Assembly: GCA_016936215.1 (NCBI GenBank)
Contig: JAFGPL010000029.1
Coordinates: forward strand, 1-63,175
Direction of reading: 5' to 3'
Source of the DNA: Bacteroidales bacterium
Lineage (GTDB): Bacteria > Bacteroidota > Bacteroidia > Bacteroidales > UBA10428
DNA length: 63,175 nt
Shown one piece after another: positions 40,040 through 45,749 of this stretch. How positions within the stretch are numbered: the stretch's first letter is position 1; each line of letters begins with the position of its first letter. The position numbers and the translations under genes are program-made. Below the pieces are notes generated by a model that saw nothing but the letters and a program-made list of their open reading frames with translations, did not search any database and was not told the origin of the DNA.

Positions 40040-41488
40040 TTATTTTTTGATCAATTTGCGCTTTCGCTCCTTTCGCTCCTCTTCCTTTTTAAGCCATTGA
40101 CAACCACAACGATTGATGTCTGAATGGCTGCGGCAACCTGCAATAATATTAAGGCCAAACCGCAGGTTAAGGTTGCGTGTGCTCTGGGGCCAGATAAACC
40201 CGGCAACATTGTCGCTCACCGCATAAAACTGAACCGGGCTTCTGACAAGCACCAAACCGGCCCCTATGTTGTTGATGCTCCGGTGTAGATATGACCAGCT
40301 AAGTGTGCCCGAAAACCAGTTTTTCGGCCTCCAGGTGGCAGAAAGCGTAAAACCTGTCTGTATTTTTTGCTTCATGAGCTTTGTCGAAAGCAAAGCACCA
40401 ACCGAAAGATTATTCTTAAGCTGATGAGAACCTCCCATATATACCCGCGGCGATAAAAAAAACAGGTACGGATCCCTTTTGAGGGTTACCTCCATGGTGT
40501 CATTAACCCTGTCAAACAGGTCGTACAGATAGTTTTCTGTAATAATGGTATCGCCCAGGGGGCCGTTGTATGCATAAGCACCCTTTAGGCCATAATTGGT
40601 TAGGTTTGAACCATAATAAATGAACCCGAGATCGAGTATACTTCCGAAAAGAACTGTTTCTTCGGTATACCGGTGCACAAAACCGGCATCAAAAGCAAAT
40701 CCCGGGTTTTTTCTGTTGAATACAAGGTCATTTGCTGTGGTATAATAATACTCCCCGTCGGGCCTGATGGTTCCGTCATCTTCATAAACAAGGCTTGCCG
40801 GCAGAGAACCGTCGAATCTCGCATCGCTTTCAAACAAAAGCCTGAAAGTGTTTTCTTCAGTAAAAAGACTCACATTGTCACGTGTGGTTTTAAAATTAAG
40901 TTTACCGAACAAGAGTTTTGCCCTTACACCAAAGGTATTGTAATCATCAACAATTTTTGAAGCACCAATGCTGAATTCCCTGAAATGATTAAAATTCAAC
41001 CCGTTATTATTCAATCCCACATTTTTACCTTCAAATTGTGTATTTCCCTTGTAAGCCAGTGAGAATAAATCTTTAGTATAAAACAGGTTCAGGTCGTTTC
41101 TTTCGCGAATGTTGAAAGTGAGGTAAAATCTGTCTTTTACTTTTATACCAAAAGAAAACAGTGACAGGTATAGTTCTGTACTTAAATAATTTACCCTTCC
41201 GAGTTTATGATGAACTGAGGTGGCATCAAAAGAGTATTCACCATTATTTTCATTTTCAAAAAGTTGGTTAAAGGTAAACCCGCTATTGGCGATATTTGCG
41301 TGCACCGAAGAGATCAACGGGAGACCCGCGAAAACTTTACACTCGGGTTGCAATGCAGGGTTTAGAAAATTTGTTTGCGGTACATGGTGCAAAAAGAAGA
41401 GGGTATGGTCTTGCTGTGCGGCAAGAGGGGAGAAAAATTTAAGCAATGCAATAATTAAAAGCTTGCTGATAATATCTCTAAGCTGCAT
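40040..41488 (-). CDS. Outer-membrane beta-barrel protein, DUF5723-like
   Basis: Signal peptide, LNPA motif, amphipathic strands (GFAFDAG, SILDLGFI, NLRFGLN); family assignment from memory. Confidence 0.7.
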   Translation of the reverse strand: MQLRDIISKLLIIALLKFFSPLAAQQDHTLFFLHHVPQTNFLNPALQPECKVFAGLPLISSVHANIANSGFTFNQLFENENNGEYSFDATSVHHKLGRVNYLSTELYLSLFSFGIKVKDRFYLTFNIRERNDLNLFYTKDLFSLAYKGNTQFEGKNVGLNNNGLNFNHFREFSIGASKIVDDYNTFGVRAKLLFGKLNFKTTRDNVSLFTEENTFRLLFESDARFDGSLPASLVYEDDGTIRPDGEYYYTTANDLVFNRKNPGFAFDAGFVHRYTEETVLFGSILDLGFIYYGSNLTNYGLKGAYAYNGPLGDTIITENYLYDLFDRVNDTMEVTLKRDPYLFFLSPRVYMGGSHQLKNNLSVGALLSTKLMKQKIQTGFTLSATWRPKNWFSGTLSWSYLHRSINNIGAGLVLVRSPVQFYAVSDNVAGFIWPQSTRNLNLRFGLNIIAGCRSHSDINRCGCQWLKKEEERKERKRKLIKK

Positions 41489-41503
41489 ATCTTCTGCAAA
41501 TGG

Positions 41504-42163
41504 TTATAACTCGTTCAGGTTAAACTCCAGTTCAGCACGTAACCCTATGTGGATTTTCAGTTTATAATCAGTATAGAACTTTACAATCCTGGTATCAGGT
41601 TTTTTAGTGGCAACCTGACCGATTATTTCAATATTGGTGTAGCCTGTGAGGTTTTCCAGCATATACTCGTCCAAAAGAATATCTTTTATTACAGTATAGG
41701 GCTGGGTTACAATCCCGTTTTGATCAACTGTTGCCGGAGGTATTGTTTCAACGCCCGCCGGGAACAATGGATCGTACAACGAAAAGTAATTTGTGAAATA
41801 AACCTGTGCGCGGGCTTCCGTCGGATAACCATTCTCAATTATTATCCTTAAAGTAATGGATTTTATTTTTTCAATATTACCTCCAAGATTTGCAAAATCA
41901 AACTGCTTGATATCGGTTTTTTCAACAATATCGGTATAATTTGGATAAACAATATCGTTGTATGCAACAGAATCCGGCCACGGGATATTGAATGATCCGA
42001 GTGCTTCAAAATAATCATTTACCTGGTAGGTAACTTCACCAACAGGTAATGAGTAAGATGAATTGATCAGCACTGAATCTGAAATATTTTCAATAGTATC
42101 TTCGAAACAACCTGCGGTTGTAATTAATACCAGTAAAAAAACCGGGTAAATCCTGGTTTTCAT
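41504..42163 (-). CDS. Hypothetical lipoprotein
   Basis: Lipobox TAG-C19 followed by acidic FEDTIE; beta-rich. Confidence 0.8.
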   Translation of the reverse strand: MKTRIYPVFLLVLITTAGCFEDTIENISDSVLINSSYSLPVGEVTYQVNDYFEALGSFNIPWPDSVAYNDIVYPNYTDIVEKTDIKQFDFANLGGNIEKIKSITLRIIIENGYPTEARAQVYFTNYFSLYDPLFPAGVETIPPATVDQNGIVTQPYTVIKDILLDEYMLENLTGYTNIEIIGQVATKKPDTRIVKFYTDYKLKIHIGLRAELEFNLNEL

Positions 42164-42729
42164 ATCATATGCGATTCAATATACTGTATCAGGCAATGTA
42201 TTACTTTTATGTGTATTTCCTGCGTGCGGTCAGAGTATTTAGAGTACGGGGCCCTGATTTCAACATCACAGTGATGAGCAAGTTTTCCTCCGTCTTTACC
42301 GGTAAGGGCAACAATTTTCATTTGCTTGTTTCTGCCGGCTACAGCCGCGTTAAGCACGCTTTTAGAATTGCCGCTGGTACTTATGGCGAGCAGCACATCA
42401 CCCGGCTGGCCTATACCCTCGATGTACCTTGAAAAAATATTTTCAAAACCGAAATCGTTGGCAGCACATGTAATATGCGAAGGGTCTGATATGGAAAGTG
42501 CCGCGATGGCAGGCCTCATTTCACGGAACAGTCCTGTTAGTTCTTCGGCAAAATGCATCGCATCGCTCATCGAGCCCCCGTTGCCACACGAAATAATTTT
42601 ATGGTTGCCTTTTATACATTCAACCATAAGTTTTCCTGCATCTTCTATTGCTTCCAGGTTTTTTTCATCCGAAGTGAACAAATCAAGCATTTTGCTTGCC
42701 TCAGCCAGGCTATGTTTTATTTCATTCAT
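42160..42729 (-). CDS. gmhA: D-sedoheptulose-7-phosphate isomerase
   Basis: CGNGGS, HFAEEL, ANDFGF, ISTSGNS, QEIH. Confidence 0.95.
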   Translation of the reverse strand: MNEIKHSLAEASKMLDLFTSDEKNLEAIEDAGKLMVECIKGNHKIISCGNGGSMSDAMHFAEELTGLFREMRPAIAALSISDPSHITCAANDFGFENIFSRYIEGIGQPGDVLLAISTSGNSKSVLNAAVAGRNKQMKIVALTGKDGGKLAHHCDVEIRAPYSKYSDRTQEIHIKVIHCLIQYIESHMI

Positions 42730-42833: not shown

Positions 42834-43460
42834 TCAGGTTTCTTCAAACCGAACTTCACCGGTTTCAACATTGTAAAGCCCGCCAATTATCTTTATGTTC
42901 TTGTTTTTTTCCATCTCAAGCAAGATCGGGCTTCTTTGCCTTATCTGTTTTATCGTAAGTTTTATATTGTTGCAGGTAACATTATTGACAAATTCCATAT
43001 TTGAGCCGTTTCTGTTATACTGTGTTTCTTTTTCGTTTTCGATGGCCTGCTTAAGCTTACTGAGCAAACCTGTAAAGTGTCCCAGTTCAAGGTTGTTACA
43101 GGCGCTGATAATGGCGCTGCACCTTGTATGGCCGAGCACTACGATTAGTTTTGAATTGGCTGTCCGGCATGCATATTCCATACTCCCGAGGATGTCATCA
43201 TTAAGGATATTGCCGGCAATTCGTATACTGAAAATATCTCCCAGCCCTTGGTCGAAAATCAGTTCGGCAGAAGTCCTCGAATCAATGCAGCTTAATATTA
43301 CCGCAAACGGGTACTGTCCTGCCGAAGTAAGGTTCACCTGTTGCAAAAGGTCGCGGTGCAATTTCAAATTATTGATAAACCTTTGGTTACCCTCTTTCAG
43401 GTAAGAAAGTGCAATTTCAGGTGATATTTTTTCCTGGCTTTTCTTGGTGTGTACCCACAT
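42834..43460 (-). CDS. Beta-class carbonic anhydrase
   Basis: LKEGNQRF, GQYPFA, Zn ligands C-IDSR and H-TR-C, FDQGLGDIF, RIAGN. Confidence 0.95.
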   Translation of the reverse strand: MWVHTKKSQEKISPEIALSYLKEGNQRFINNLKLHRDLLQQVNLTSAGQYPFAVILSCIDSRTSAELIFDQGLGDIFSIRIAGNILNDDILGSMEYACRTANSKLIVVLGHTRCSAIISACNNLELGHFTGLLSKLKQAIENEKETQYNRNGSNMEFVNNVTCNNIKLTIKQIRQRSPILLEMEKNKNIKIIGGLYNVETGEVRFEET

Positions 43461-43473
43461 TTAATTGCTTTAT

Positions 43474-45420
43474 TTAGTGTTCTGTCGTTCCGTTTTCATA
43501 ATCTTTTATGGTAAGAAATGAATATGAATAATTCATCGGAACAATCGCATTATAATCTTCGACCCTTGCTCCCGACATAAAAGCGTCAATGATCCTTTTA
43601 CCGGTATGGGTAAGTTCAGGTTTCAGGAATTGTTTCAATTGCTTTTTAAAAAATTCAGTAAGTATTTCAGCTCCTGCATCATATCCTTCGGTGCCAACCT
43701 CTGTTTGGCGGTGCACCTGCAGAAACCTGGAGGGTATTTTCGCCCCTTCGATGGTAAGATAGTTAAGCTCATAACCCAGGAGCGGGCAACGTGCTTCCTG
43801 GTACTGATCGGCCCTGAGTTTTGCATTGCCCCGGCGTGTGAGATATTCGCGCATGATAAGCTGAGGTTTGAAACCTACTTTCCAGACACCAATGTGCTGA
43901 TTTGGAACGAGGGTATAACGCATACGGGGGCTTTGAATTATCTGTTCAAGAAGAATATTGGCGTGGGTAACCATTGTACCTGTTGCAAAAGGCCAGTAAG
44001 AACCTACTCCTTCCGATTCCATTCCCTTGCCACCAACAATACTGGGGTTGCCATAACCCCGCGGTGAAACAAGCCTCCAAAGCCATGCGAGAGCCGGGGG
44101 AAGTATGTGAAATAAACCAATAATGCCATAGTCGGGTTTTTCTTTTGAACATGGTGGGGTCCGAACCCCAAAACTTCTAATGTCAACTGTAACCGGTCTG
44201 TTTATAATATCAGGGACGATATCACGGGGAAGGATTACCCTGGGGTTTGGACATGTTTTTCCCGGTTCGTCTTCAATATGGTCCCAGATCAATGCAGTGC
44301 TGCCCGGGTTGGTCTTGATGTTTAAGAACAACAAAGGCTTCTTTGGTTTGATGGTTGTTTTTTCAAGAAAAGGATCACTGCCATAGTCTTTTATGCCGTC
44401 AACTCTAATAAACCAGGCATTTTCGGCATCCAGTACTGTGAGTTTACCGTTATCTTTCTGAATGGCAGGATGACAGAAGGCCATATCATCGGTTACGGGA
44501 TGAAAAGAGCAGAAGATGGGCAGATTGATTAACCTCCTTTCGCCAGTGATGATGTTTTCACCTATCAACACCTGCCCGTTGGGTTCCCTGACAATATTCT
44601 GTAGCATCTCACTTTTCCCTCCGCCACTGGCCCCTTCGTGCATAAAGGTTATTACATTGTCGTATGGGCTGATGACTTCCACTGTGGAACAATGTGCAGT
44701 AATCCATCCTTCACGTTCACCTTTGGTAAGTAAAGCACCGTATAACCCTTTTTTGGCACTGGGCCCCGGGTACAGGTTGTAAGAAAATATTTCGTGGAGG
44801 TTTTCAGACCGGTTATGCACAACCACCTGTTTACCGTTGAAATGTGTATGACGAAAAGTAGGTGCGACATATATCACAGAATCAATAGTCATGTTATCAA
44901 GCAGATCACTTACCGGTATTATCTTCTGCAACATGGCCAAGCCCATCGCAAAGAAAGCTGCATTGGCAGGCGCTATGGCCATGCCGCTCATTCCAATGTT
45001 TTCTCTTCCGGCAAAATAAAAAAACAGTGCCAAGTCCTGATCCTTCAGCCAATCAAATGTTTCTTTCCGAAGCGATTGAAAATCATACCCGTATTTATCT
45101 TTAAATCTGCTTTTATCAGTGGGCATATTGTCTGAGACTGCCATGGTATCTGGGTCGCGGCGGCGCATGTACGGATCGGTATAATTCGCAGAAATACCAT
45201 TGGTGACCCTGTGGATGATTGCTTCGGTGTAGTCGCCAATACCCTGAACCTGGTATTTTACCTCAAAGTAATTGCAGCCTTCACCTCCCGATGCCGCAAG
45301 TGCAAGCTGGTCAACCGAATCAAAAACTTCATAACGCTTACAACTATTTAGTAAAACAAAGGCATCATCGGGTAAGGCAATTTTCTTCTTTTCAAGTATC
45401 TTAAATAAATTATTCATCAT
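43474..45420 (-). CDS. DUF4914-type protein, divergent PEP-carboxykinase-like enzyme
   Basis: RRRDPD, YPGPSAKKG, AHCS, GASGGGKSE, TDD and NPR occur in PEPCK motif order. Confidence 0.75.
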   Translation of the reverse strand: MMNNLFKILEKKKIALPDDAFVLLNSCKRYEVFDSVDQLALAASGGEGCNYFEVKYQVQGIGDYTEAIIHRVTNGISANYTDPYMRRRDPDTMAVSDNMPTDKSRFKDKYGYDFQSLRKETFDWLKDQDLALFFYFAGRENIGMSGMAIAPANAAFFAMGLAMLQKIIPVSDLLDNMTIDSVIYVAPTFRHTHFNGKQVVVHNRSENLHEIFSYNLYPGPSAKKGLYGALLTKGEREGWITAHCSTVEVISPYDNVITFMHEGASGGGKSEMLQNIVREPNGQVLIGENIITGERRLINLPIFCSFHPVTDDMAFCHPAIQKDNGKLTVLDAENAWFIRVDGIKDYGSDPFLEKTTIKPKKPLLFLNIKTNPGSTALIWDHIEDEPGKTCPNPRVILPRDIVPDIINRPVTVDIRSFGVRTPPCSKEKPDYGIIGLFHILPPALAWLWRLVSPRGYGNPSIVGGKGMESEGVGSYWPFATGTMVTHANILLEQIIQSPRMRYTLVPNQHIGVWKVGFKPQLIMREYLTRRGNAKLRADQYQEARCPLLGYELNYLTIEGAKIPSRFLQVHRQTEVGTEGYDAGAEILTEFFKKQLKQFLKPELTHTGKRIIDAFMSGARVEDYNAIVPMNYSYSFLTIKDYENGTTEH

Positions 45421-45451
45421 AATGACTTAAAGTGTGTATATGTTAACTGCA

Positions 45452-45459
45452 CAAAGGTA
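45452..45459 (-). promoter_or_regulatory. -7 promoter element for the DUF4914/carbonic anhydrase operon
   Basis: TACCTTTG on the minus strand, 31 nt before ATG. Confidence 0.55.
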
Positions 45460-45749
45460 CTTATTTATGTTTTTTGCAGTAACTGTTTTTCCTAAAATTC
45501 AAAACAATAAAACAGGTACAAAAATAAGATTAAATTAATTATTTAAGAAATACTTAATCACGAAAGATTTAACCCTGGTTATTCATCCGTTTTTTTTCTA
45601 TATATTGCCACGATGAAACAATACTAAGTCTATGGTAAATCAAAATTTACCGTAATAATCAGCGATTTATTAAAAAGCATGAATCATGAGGGTTAAAAAT
45701 TTGCACGGTTTTTGCTTTAACAACGTGTGGAGGTTAATGATAACTTCCA

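Follow-up and report, generated by a model that had tools for sequence, protein, structure and literature searches.

DUF4914 proteins as a putative fourth sequence class of the PEPCK superfamily and the lineage-specific pairing of one member with a carbonic anhydrase in a Bacteroidales bacterium

A sediment Bacteroidales bacterium carries, directly ahead of the gene for its beta-carbonic anhydrase (CA), a gene for a 648-aa protein of the Pfam family DUF4914, which judged by its sequence is a fourth class beside the ATP-, GTP- and PPi-dependent PEPCKs. Based on conserved residues and a structural model, we lean, by somewhat better than an even chance, toward the view that DUF4914 is an active PEPCK-superfamily enzyme of this fourth class that works at the PEP/oxaloacetate node and has acquired its CA partner only in certain lineages. 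To the best of our knowledge, textbooks list only three PEPCK classes.

The locus and its protein family

The window, i.e., the whole 63,175-nt stretch of DNA that was analysed, contains the following features around the DUF4914 gene:

45452..45459, minus strand: TACCTTTG, candidate -7 promoter element of the Bacteroidota type, 32-39 nt ahead of the DUF4914 ATG
43474..45420, minus strand: 648-aa DUF4914 protein, putative PEPCK-superfamily enzyme by sequence and model (ORF; PF16260 match)
43461..43473, minus strand: 13-nt intergenic spacer between the DUF4914 and CA genes (ORF coordinates)
42834..43460, minus strand: 208-aa cytoplasmic-type beta-CA (PF00484 and NF011765 matches)
42160..42729, minus strand: GmhA, sedoheptulose-7-phosphate isomerase (NF001628, 267.2 bits vs cutoff 265)

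The ORF coordinates agree with the layout given in an earlier note on this DNA, a 648-aa gene followed after a 13-nt gap by a beta-CA, and the downstream product matches the CA family models (PF00484 at 126.6 bits; NF011765 at 243.9 bits vs a cutoff of 221). Its translation contains the zinc site C58-x-D60-x-R62 and H111-x-x-C114, with C58, H111 and C114 as zinc ligands and D60 and R62 as the Asp-Arg dyad. No other protein of the host genome (G000) matches PF00484, and no match to an alpha-CA was found there. The DUF4914 and CA genes are probably co-transcribed in the host, and no terminator-like site was found on the minus strand in the spacer between them. Where the earlier note had seen one promoter element, TACCTTTG is indeed present upstream of DUF4914, but a second match to TANNTTTG lies at 45519-45526 (minus strand) in the same intergenic region. 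We take TAnnTTTG to be the Bacteroidota promoter consensus; with 71 occurrences in the window compared to 74.9 expected from shuffles, TANNTTTG is at chance frequency, so that it is solely the position of TACCTTTG that suggests a promoter role. Scans for promoter and terminator consensus sequences were likewise at background (14 vs 12.0 expected and 6 vs 4.8 expected, respectively), and the sole RNA run from the same study contains next to none of the stretch's sequence words. The CA gene is followed after 104 nt, on the same strand, by the GmhA gene, which we regard as context only; no GmhA homologue adjoining DUF4914 was detected at 80 related loci.

With 966.1 bits (cutoff 25.7) over residues 17-626, equivalent to positions 2-611 of the 612 in the model, the 648-aa protein is a full-length member of DUF4914 (PF16260). 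This is the sole family that it matches in a Pfam scan at E<=1, at which neither PF01293 (PEPCK_ATP) nor PF00821/PF17297 (PEPCK_GTP/PEPCK_N) was found, in line with the previous claim that the protein is of neither the ATP nor the GTP type; no NCBIfam model matches it. Calling the enzyme cryptic, as had been done before, is wrong in the database sense because the protein belongs to an existing Pfam family, but we found no papers containing "DUF4914" or "PF16260", and by sequence DUF4914 is an uncharacterised family of the PEPCK superfamily that no paper we found names.

More than 8000 homologues were detected, of which the best 120 listed are 75-100% identical to the protein. The 80 related loci, gathered with a closer family alignment and kept for comparison, encode DUF4914 proteins of 59-81% identity, some of them in MAGs that carry the label Planctomycetota, Verrucomicrobia, Chloroflexaceae, Nitrospiraceae or Hydrogenedentota, a degree of identity across phyla that points to strong purifying selection. 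DUF4914 is present in roughly 3-9% of the sampled genomes of four phyla. Longer forms of the family did not score among 3316 candidates of 1198-3420 aa, which is weak evidence, and in five genomes from other phyla the family profile retrieved at E<=10 nothing beyond the DUF4914 genes themselves and three trivial fragments.

Homology, predicted fold and catalytic residues

Profile searches against the PDB, run to E<=10, link DUF4914 to a single PEPCK class. All 17 of 17 matches were ATP-PEPCKs (best 4.6e-8), as were 16 of 16 with a second alignment (best 1.5e-8), and no PPi-PEPCK was among them. The catalytic core alone (residues 200-480) gave no matches to the PDB, nor did a single-sequence phmmer search with the whole 648-aa protein give any meaningful one. 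Alignment by hhalign to a set comprising E. coli Pck, four Bacteroidota PckA and one divergent PEPCK-like ORF reached 98.0% probability (E 2.5e-13, 408 columns) and, in global mode, 99.2% (E 6.2e-19, 497 columns). In addition, the DUF4914 Pfam model weakly matches three PckA ORFs (about 541-550 aa) of other Bacteroidota that are 48-49% identical to E. coli Pck.

The AlphaFold2 model of the protein (pLDDT 92.0, pTM 0.90) has a complete two-domain PEPCK fold made up of an N-terminal domain and a C-terminal P-loop domain. All 50 Foldseek matches listed are PEPCKs (E 2.5e-23 to about 5e-21), and VIA superpositions cover model residues about 1-620 with Z-scores of 25.7-31.4. Profiles, hhalign, model, Foldseek and VIA therefore agree on a compact, uncharacterised PEPCK-superfamily enzyme, as the earlier note had proposed. 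HPr kinase/phosphorylase (HprK/P) has a PEPCK-like P-loop domain and would share only its C-terminal domain with DUF4914. We rejected an HprK-like kinase reading because the match to PEPCK spans both domains from residue 1 to about 630, including the N-terminal one, and no HprK was found among the 50 matches listed for either structure search (Foldseek and VIA).

Among the known classes, ATP-PEPCK (PckA, EC 4.1.1.49, PF01293; E. coli 1aq2/2pxz, Thermus thermophilus 1j3b/2pc9, Anaerobiospirillum succiniciproducens 1ytm) is the only one found by sequence profiles. It has the two-domain fold in common with DUF4914 (Z 28-30.6; 30.6 with 489 residues aligned for 2pc9_D and about 28 with about 500 for E. 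coli Pck) together with the same predicted Mn2+ ligands, P-loop lysine and serine/threonine, DD motif, and substrate arginine and tyrosine, though at a structural identity of about 14-17%. The DUF4914 protein is about 110 residues longer, carries GASGGGKSE instead of GLSGTGKTT as its P-loop and, in an alignment of modest confidence, lacks the adenine-binding loop (E. coli R449, I450-T455). PPi-PEPCK (EC 4.1.1.38; Propionibacterium freudenreichii 8e1u, Actinomyces israelii 6k31) is the best or tied-best structural match and gives the longest superpositions (8e1u_D: Z 31.4, rmsd 3.1, 582 residues aligned, 17% identity; 6k31: Z 30.4, rmsd 3.0, 573 residues aligned, 17% identity). These enzymes comprise about 1100 residues with extra domains (chains of 1124 residues in 8e1u and 1108 in 6k31), compared to 648 in DUF4914, which is without these roughly 450 extra residues. 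GTP-PEPCK (EC 4.1.1.32, PF00821 and PF17297; rat cPEPCK, Mycobacterium tuberculosis 4r43) shares the fold and is of similar size (about 600 aa), but its P-loop is of a different type and it scores below the other two classes (Z about 26, about 520 residues aligned).

The residues of DUF4914 that align with catalytic positions of E. coli Pck are encoded as follows:

45157..45165, minus strand: R86-R87-R88, with R88 as counterpart of Pck R65, the PEP/oxaloacetate and CO2-site arginine (global hhalign, low-confidence N-terminal part)
44749..44772, minus strand: Y217-P-G-P-S-A-K223-K224, counterpart of Pck Y207...K212-K213, K213 being an Mn2+ ligand (HMMER vs PDB ATP-PEPCKs; hhalign)
44692..44694, minus strand: H243, at least 90% conserved, counterpart of Pck H232, an Mn2+ ligand (HMMER alignment and hhalign)
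44608..44634, minus strand: P-loop G263-A-S-G-G-G-K269-S270-E271, counterpart of Pck G248-LSGTGKT-T256 (HMMER alignment and hhalign)
44485..44490, minus strand: D311-D312, counterpart of Pck D268-D269, D269 being an Mn2+ ligand (hhalign)
44239..44247, minus strand: N392-P393-R394, counterpart of Pck N331-T332-R333, with the substrate and gamma-phosphate arginine (hhalign)

All of these residues had been listed in the earlier note, and their presence, their conservation and their equivalence to E. coli Pck are borne out by hhalign at 98-99% probability, with the pairing of R65 falling into a low-confidence region. Conservation was judged in an alignment of 18 DUF4914 sequences reaching down to 27% identity, in which all of them are either invariant or at least 90% conserved: K223, the P-loop residues S265, G266, K269 and E271, as well as D311, N392 and R394 are invariant, while R86, R88, Y217, K224 and D312 are at least 90% conserved; at such distances, this is far beyond chance. 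K269 and S270 align with Pck K254 and T255, the kinase-1a lysine and the serine/threonine Mg2+ ligand, and global hhalign pairs the GRSP of Pck with RRDP in DUF4914. The spacing of 19 residues from K224 to H243, another earlier observation, equals that from K213 to H232 in E. coli Pck. By sequence, the predicted Mn2+ ligands K224, H243 and D312 and the substrate residues R88, Y217 and R394 thus match Pck one-to-one. Beyond this shared set, Pck K288, E282 and E297 align with R339, E333 and D349 (hhalign), 28 residues are inserted between the P-loop lysine and the DD motif (K269-D311 compared to K254-D268 in Pck), and R190, H202 and E271 are invariant in DUF4914 with no conserved Pck counterpart. 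At the adenine loop, where hhalign is of modest confidence, Pck R449 aligns with I522 and Pck 451-455 are deleted.

Gene neighbourhoods and coexisting PEPCKs

Of the 80 related loci, 4 have a CA gene immediately downstream of DUF4914, and a fifth has one no more than 1.4 kb away (5/80). On a DUF4914 family tree built with FastTree, the CA-linked members appear at three separate places and in two architectures, DUF4914-CA and, at locus L032, regulator-DUF4914-PurE-Sua5-CA. No Pro_CA was found among 113 scanned of the 122 ORFs within two genes of DUF4914 at 30 loci from three other phyla, and close relatives with 75-78% identity (L005-L010) have no adjoining CA. The pairing is a lineage-specific addition and no defining part of the system; the linkage is real but narrow, and support for the "CO2-fixing module" suggested in the earlier note is weak. 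An accident of gene order within certain lineages, with the CA serving general bicarbonate supply, is a serious contender that falls short of an even chance: it would accommodate the scarcity of linked loci, the lack of a Pro_CA among the ORFs scanned at the 30 loci of three other phyla, the CA-less close relatives, and the 67-70% identity among the CA orthologues of linked loci, which is compatible with one origin, yet we estimate that a CA is expected beside any given gene only about once in thousands of genes, and both the three places on the tree with their two architectures and a 13-nt gap that fits co-transcription argue against it. The same is true of MpsC-family genes, which are tied to inorganic-carbon uptake and flank DUF4914 in 2 of the 30 loci from other phyla. 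The CA pairing suggests a CO2-linked carboxylation step, but it is confined to a few lineages.

Otherwise, the neighbourhoods are variable and rarely contain enzymes of PEP-pyruvate-oxaloacetate metabolism (malic enzyme once, at L103). Regulators are common, with an XRE-cupin protein beside DUF4914 in 26/80 related loci, AraC in 4/30 and LysR in 1/30 loci of other phyla, and a further LysR beside L081. PurE is found in 7/80 and Sua5 in 10/80 related loci; further neighbours are PurK at L145 and PurC at L168.

The host genome encodes a canonical ATP-PEPCK elsewhere (PF01293, 662 bits) beside a PPDK and has no match to PF00821 (GTP-PEPCK). A membrane H+-PPase and PPDK are present and no PEP carboxylase was found, which makes a PPi economy and a dependence on PEPCK-type carboxylation plausible. 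GTP-PEPCK is encoded alongside DUF4914 in G001-G003 and in 15 of the 19 DUF4914-positive genomes of one other phylum, where GTP- or ATP-PEPCK is found in 16/19; in the remaining three (G156, G199 and G283, of unknown completeness), nothing scores above the family cutoffs for a canonical PEPCK. GTP-PEPCK is absent from 4/19 positive and 13/182 negative genomes (Fisher p = 0.061), a difference that is no evidence because the genomes are related and not independent. Replacement of PEPCK by DUF4914 as a general rule was rejected because the two usually co-occur. With a canonical PEPCK also present, a second enzyme for the same reaction needs a reason. PMC8100219 describes organisms with PPi-PEPCK as mostly also keeping ATP- or GTP-PEPCK, a likeness to the distribution of DUF4914.

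Candidate reaction and its alternatives

If DUF4914 acts as a PEPCK, K224, H243 and D312 would coordinate Mn2+, R88, Y217 and R394 would bind PEP/oxaloacetate and CO2, and the phosphoryl donor/acceptor would sit with Mg2+ on K269/S270 of the P-loop, for the reaction PEP + CO2 + acceptor <-> oxaloacetate + phosphorylated acceptor. PEPCK uses CO2 and not bicarbonate, according to PMC8100219, and the CA may equilibrate CO2 and bicarbonate where the carboxylation/decarboxylation takes place. Given the missing adenine-binding loop, ADP in its classical binding mode is probably not the acceptor; candidates are Pi/PPi or a differently bound nucleotide, and the sequence makes a non-adenine phosphoryl partner probable.

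A narrower case of this reading is a compact PPi-dependent PEPCK (PEP + Pi + CO2 = oxaloacetate + PPi), which we consider rather improbable. The earlier note had suspected such a link from the motifs SGGGKSE and NPR, which may be shared with PPi-PEPCKs, and it finds support in the structural comparison, where 8e1u and 6k31 have the highest query-normalised Foldseek TM-scores (0.70 and 0.68 vs 0.60-0.64) and about 80-90 more residues superimposed by VIA than ATP-PEPCKs, in the replacement of R449 by I522 and the deleted adenine loop, in the membrane PPase and PPDK of the host, and in the co-occurrence with canonical PEPCK that PMC8100219 describes for most PPi-PEPCK organisms. The sequence profiles do not follow suit, since in the PDB they find the ATP type exclusively, and the Z-scores of PPi and ATP enzymes are tied within 1. 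Furthermore, the roughly 450 additional residues of known PPi-PEPCKs are missing, and R339 and D349 are kept as counterparts of K288 and E297, which we take to contact the nucleotide in Pck, so that the partner may also be a nucleotide.

A broader departure would be PEPCK-type chemistry, i.e., metal-assisted phosphoryl transfer coupled to (de)carboxylation or to the formation of an enolate, in which the substrate is not PEP/oxaloacetate; the neighbouring CA, PurE, PurK, PurC and Sua5 genes would then point to another reaction of inorganic carbon or of a carboxylate. These neighbours, the canonical PEPCK coexisting in the host, in G001-G003 and in 16/19 positive genomes of one phylum, the invariant R190, H202 and E271, and dedicated XRE-cupin, AraC and LysR regulators, of a kind that conditional pathways typically have but core enzymes seldom do, all speak for such a substrate. 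We nevertheless regard it as unlikely, if less so than the PPi-dependent case, because the PEP/oxaloacetate/CO2 contacts R65, Y207, K213 and R333 of Pck all have conserved counterparts, every full-length structural match among the 50 listed is a PEPCK, and the PurE and Sua5 neighbours are confined to one related set of lineages and may go back to few independent events. That DUF4914 is a PEPCK relic which has lost catalysis and now serves in regulation or as a structural protein is very improbable in view of metal ligands, P-loop lysine and substrate arginines that are invariant or nearly so down to 27% identity, and of the very high conservation across phyla. In its most elaborate form, our preferred reading of DUF4914 as an active enzyme of the PEP/oxaloacetate node would make it a compact fourth PEPCK class that uses Pi/PPi or another non-adenine carrier, stands structurally between the ATP and PPi types, and owes its spread among anaerobic Bacteroidota, Verrucomicrobiota, Planctomycetota, Chloroflexota and others to horizontal transfer, serving there as an inducible anaplerotic enzyme with a link to inorganic carbon. 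This would explain the recurrent CA, MpsC, PurE/PurK and Sua5 genes and the dedicated regulators, but as a whole we hold it to be speculative and slightly less probable still than PPi dependence.

In anaerobes, both the route by which CO2 is fixed into succinate and propionate and the course of gluconeogenesis are decided at the PEP-pyruvate-oxaloacetate node. Because DUF4914 is annotated as a domain of unknown function, metabolic reconstructions of communities from sediments, digesters and the gut do not include it. Should its phosphoryl partner turn out to be PPi or some other non-adenine carrier, the energy yields estimated for these fermentations would change, and engineered succinate production with CO2 fixation would gain a compact enzyme. 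The CA-linked DUF4914 of this window offers a natural entry point to the CO2 dependence of the family.

DUF4914 and the PEPCK fold

The 648-aa protein is a full-length member of the DUF4914 family (PF16260, 966 bits over residues 17-626) that is matched by no NCBIfam model, and a literature search of article texts turned up no mention of DUF4914 or PF16260. A word-indexed search returned at least 8000 homologues at E<=0.001 (8000 of 8000 scored candidates passed), the best 120 of which share 75-100% identity and carry PF16260 without exception. Among representatives clustered at 50% identity, 645 were matched at E<=0.001 and 155 at 1e-30, with full-length members down to 29% identity. Longer forms, like the representative P0122 (831 aa, family match at residues 218-828) and ORFs of 831 and 846 aa at loci L164 and L167 in two high-GC genomes, may have real N-terminal extensions or start codons called too far upstream.

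All residues from which the earlier note had proposed a PEPCK-like enzyme are present in the translation (R86-R87-R88, Y217, K223/K224, H243, G263-ASGGGKSE-271, D311/D312 and N392-P393-R394). Across an 18-sequence family alignment reaching 27% identity, R190, G219, K223, S265, G266, K269, E271, D311, E333, P372, N392, R394, G418, G435, F478, P506, G511 and R524 are invariant, while R86, R88, Y217, K224, H243, G263, G268, S270, D312 and R339 are at least 90% conserved; a further check agrees, and that choice of residues therefore fell on truly conserved positions. R190, H202 and E271 are specific to the family and may bind the co-substrate.

Profiles made from two DUF4914 family alignments matched nothing but ATP-PEPCKs in the PDB, with 17 of 17 matches for A1 (1ytm at E 4.6e-8, 1j3b at 5.7e-7, 1ii2 at 3.9e-4; E. 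coli structures range from 0.012 to 0.19) and 16 of 16 for A2 (best 1j3b, 1.5e-8). Using hhalign, the family aligned over 408 columns (98.0% probability, E 2.5e-13) or, in global mode, 497 columns (99.2%, E 6.2e-19) with a six-row PEPCK alignment composed of E. coli ATP-PEPCK (Pck), PckA of the window's own genome, three other Bacteroidota PckA and one divergent Cloacimonadota PEPCK-like ORF. In other Bacteroidota, the Pfam DUF4914 model weakly matches three ORFs for PckA, each about 541-550 aa long, and in a protein-language-model atlas a PEPCK_ATP cluster comes after the DUF4914 clusters, at 0.91.

Positions of E. coli Pck and their counterparts in the DUF4914 protein (hhalign)
R65: R88 (global mode, low-confidence region)
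Y207: Y217
K212/K213: K223/K224
H232: H243
G248-T256: G263-E271
D268/D269: D311/D312
E282: E333
K288: R339
E297: D349
N331/R333: N392/R394
R456: R524

In E. coli Pck, Mn2+ is bound by K213, H232 and D269 and Mg2+ by T255; R65, Y207 and R333 form the substrate and CO2 site, K288 and E297 contact the nucleotide, and R449-T455 make up the adenine loop. With Pck R449 opposite I522 and residues 451-455 in a deletion of the hhalign alignment, the classical adenine loop is therefore absent from the DUF4914 protein, whose active-site geometry we infer from these alignments. Between its P-loop lysine and DD motif lie 42 residues, compared to 14 in Pck, owing to an insertion of 28 residues.

An AlphaFold2 model of the protein (32-row alignment; pLDDT 92.0, pTM 0.90) gave 118 Foldseek matches in the PDB at E<=0.001, and the best 50 of these are without exception PEPCKs, with ATP, GTP and PPi types all represented (E 2.5e-23 to about 5e-21), bearing out the PEPCK-like assignment. 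Query-normalised Foldseek TM scores are 0.60-0.64 for ATP and GTP types, 0.70 for the PPi enzyme 8e1u and 0.68 for the PPi enzyme 6k31. In VIA-align superpositions the PPi and ATP types tie on Z-score, although the match to PPi enzymes extends over about 80-90 additional model residues.

VIA-align superpositions of the model on solved PEPCKs
8e1u_D, PPi: Z 31.4, rmsd 3.1, 582 aligned, 17% identity
2pc9_D, ATP (Thermus): Z 30.6, rmsd 3.0, 489 aligned
6k31_B, PPi: Z 30.4, rmsd 3.0, 573 aligned
E. coli entries, ATP: Z about 28, rmsd 3.4-3.9, about 500 aligned
GTP enzymes: Z about 26, rmsd 3.2-3.5, about 520 aligned

A 2020 review still describes PPi-PEPCK as having no evolutionary relationship with the ATP and GTP classes (PMC8100219), but from the solved structures among these matches it is evident that the PPi class has the PEPCK fold as well. 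Homology of DUF4914 to PEPCK and its PEPCK fold are settled, and the protein is very likely catalytically competent.

Phosphoryl partner and reaction

The PPi link that the earlier note had considered possible finds some footing in the greater extent of the structural match to PPi-PEPCKs, the lack of an adenine loop and the gene content of the window's own genome, which has a membrane pyrophosphatase and PPDK without a PEP carboxylase. A further point in its favour is that, according to the review (PMC8100219), organisms with PPi-PEPCK mostly retain a canonical PEPCK too. However, the sequence profiles see the ATP class exclusively, R339 and D349 occupy the places of the nucleotide contacts K288 and E297 of Pck, and the Z-scores do not separate the two classes, so that we regard a PPi-dependent PEPCK as rather improbable. 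Action on a different substrate, the main rival, is unlikely too, if a little less so; interconversion of PEP and oxaloacetate is the best-supported guess for the DUF4914 enzyme, and one that we would lean toward with reserve.

The locus and its carbonic anhydrase

The genes and candidate elements at the locus are the following.

Features of the DUF4914 locus in the window
43474..45420, minus strand: DUF4914 gene, 648-aa ORF
43461-43473, minus strand: 13-nt spacer between the DUF4914 and carbonic anhydrase (CA) genes
42834..43460, minus strand: CA gene, 208-aa ORF
45452-45459, minus strand: candidate promoter element TACCTTTG, 32-39 nt ahead of the DUF4914 ATG
45519-45526: second copy of the promoter-like motif

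Of the single promoter element described previously, the placement of TACCTTTG ahead of the ATG stands, but a second copy lies nearby and the degenerate motif TANNTTTG is found at chance frequency (71 occurrences in the window vs 74.9 expected from shuffles); the case for a promoter lies in the motif's position, not in its presence. Scans of the window for generic promoters and terminators remained at background level. Following a 104-nt gap 3' of the CA gene, gmhA (NF001628, 267 bits) lies on the same strand, and beyond it a 219-aa ORF unassigned in Pfam and a DUF5723 protein of 482 aa (40040-42163, minus strand) are tightly spaced on the strand of DUF4914 and CA. Upstream of DUF4914 lies a divergent mutL, and an XRE-cupin regulator is absent from the window.

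The CA is of the beta type and matches PF00484 (126.6 bits) and NF011765 (243.9 bits, cutoff 221), the latter from model position 44 on with the first 43 positions missing. It has the zinc-site residues C58, D60, R62, H111 and C114. Its genome yielded no other beta-CA match and no alpha-CA.

Linkage of CA and DUF4914, which the earlier note had read as a candidate CO2-fixing module, does recur, but narrowly. A tblastn search with the window's CA covered 80 related loci (59-81% identity) drawn from species-representative genomes, for the most part Bacteroidales, and placed a CA near DUF4914 in five, directly 3' in L004, L019 (truncated), L027 and L051 and 1.4 kb 3' in L032. In a FastTree phylogeny built from the window and 76 of the loci (77 sequences; four loci without a clustered ORF >=560 aa omitted), CA-linked tips occupy three positions (the window with L004, a Proteiniphilum trio, and L032) with CA-less relatives between them, and therefore reflect few events rather than many. 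No Pro_CA/CA was found among the 113 of 122 +-2 neighbour ORFs scanned at 30 loci of three other phyla, and the pairing is a narrow, lineage-specific addition. As PEPCKs use CO2 (PMC8100219), the CA is plausibly a functional helper of the DUF4914 enzyme here.

The uncultured Bacteroidales contig of L032 (3259-7544) has a tight same-strand array in which an XRE-cupin regulator gene, sharing 4 nt with the start of DUF4914, is followed by DUF4914 itself and then by genes for a PurE-type AIR carboxylase, Sua5/TsaC and a beta-CA, the last of them truncated where the contig ends. The PEPCK-like gene is thus trailed by three enzymes using or interconverting CO2 or bicarbonate.

Neighbours across lineages and canonical PEPCKs

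Apart from a regulator of its own, the DUF4914 gene is usually solitary, and inorganic-carbon-related neighbours recur loosely. Clustering of the neighbour ORFs at the 80 related loci and Pfam scans of 21 cluster representatives revealed an XRE-type HTH and cupin regulator as the commonest neighbour (26/80 loci, in 22 of which it precedes DUF4914 on the same strand; HTH_3 + Cupin_2, about 180-206 aa, e.g., L052:5289-5831 and L066:5106-5726), followed by Sua5/TsaC (10/80), PurE-type AIR carboxylase overlapping the stop codon (7/80), a convergent class I/II aminotransferase (7/80) and a beta-CA ORF cluster (4/80). L052 and L066 belong to the cultured strains Labilibacter sediminis and Marinilabilia salmonicolor, which carry close homologues of the window's DUF4914 protein. 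DUF4914 was also seen in contigs labelled as the unrelated taxa Candidatus Edwardsbacteria (L006, 78% identity) and Halieaceae (L067, 66%), which points to either horizontal transfer or binning error.

By the family model, DUF4914 occurs in 19/201, 9/201 and 6/201 sampled genomes of three other phyla and in 5/151 of Bacteroidota. From these phyla 31 loci were fetched, and the scanned neighbours at 30 of them include PurK (L145) and PurC (L168) once each, AraC regulators at four loci, LysR at one (L145; a separate scan found a further LysR beside L081) and MpsC-family proteins (PF10057) at two, which belong to genomes of different phyla (L138:7266-7697, L155:6884-7357). A malic enzyme upstream of DUF4914 on the same strand (L103:8565-9710, genome G015), found once among 12 further loci scanned, is the only neighbour from the PEP-pyruvate-oxaloacetate node in the loci examined.

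A canonical ATP-PEPCK (662 bits) is encoded elsewhere in the window's own genome, on contig C118, where it adjoins a PPDK-like gene; the pair spans C118:7485-11784, with the PEPCK about 1.8 kb 3' of the 909-aa PPDK-like ORF on the same strand. GTP-PEPCK is found in genomes G001-G003, and G004, a 1.5-Mb Cloacimonadota chromosome without a GTP-PEPCK match, has a divergent ATP-type-like ORF, a second divergent PEPCK-like protein in addition to DUF4914. This 591-aa ORF (L093:1162-2937) has a GLSGTGKSS P-loop and 23% identity to E. coli Pck in alignment A4, and it matches PEPCK_ATP weakly, at 38 bits over model positions 66-229.

GTP-PEPCK is present in 184/201 genomes in the phylum of G003 and in 15 of its 19 DUF4914-positive genomes, with ATP-PEPCK in one more (G265); the other three positives (G156, G199 and G283, completeness unknown) have neither above family cutoffs. 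Absence of GTP-PEPCK from 4/19 positive vs 13/182 negative genomes (Fisher p = 0.061, kinship ignored) is not evidence of an association because related genomes are not independent. With a canonical PEPCK in 16/19 positives, co-occurrence rules out DUF4914 as a replacement for PEPCK as the norm, and DUF4914 is therefore normally a second PEPCK-fold enzyme of its hosts.
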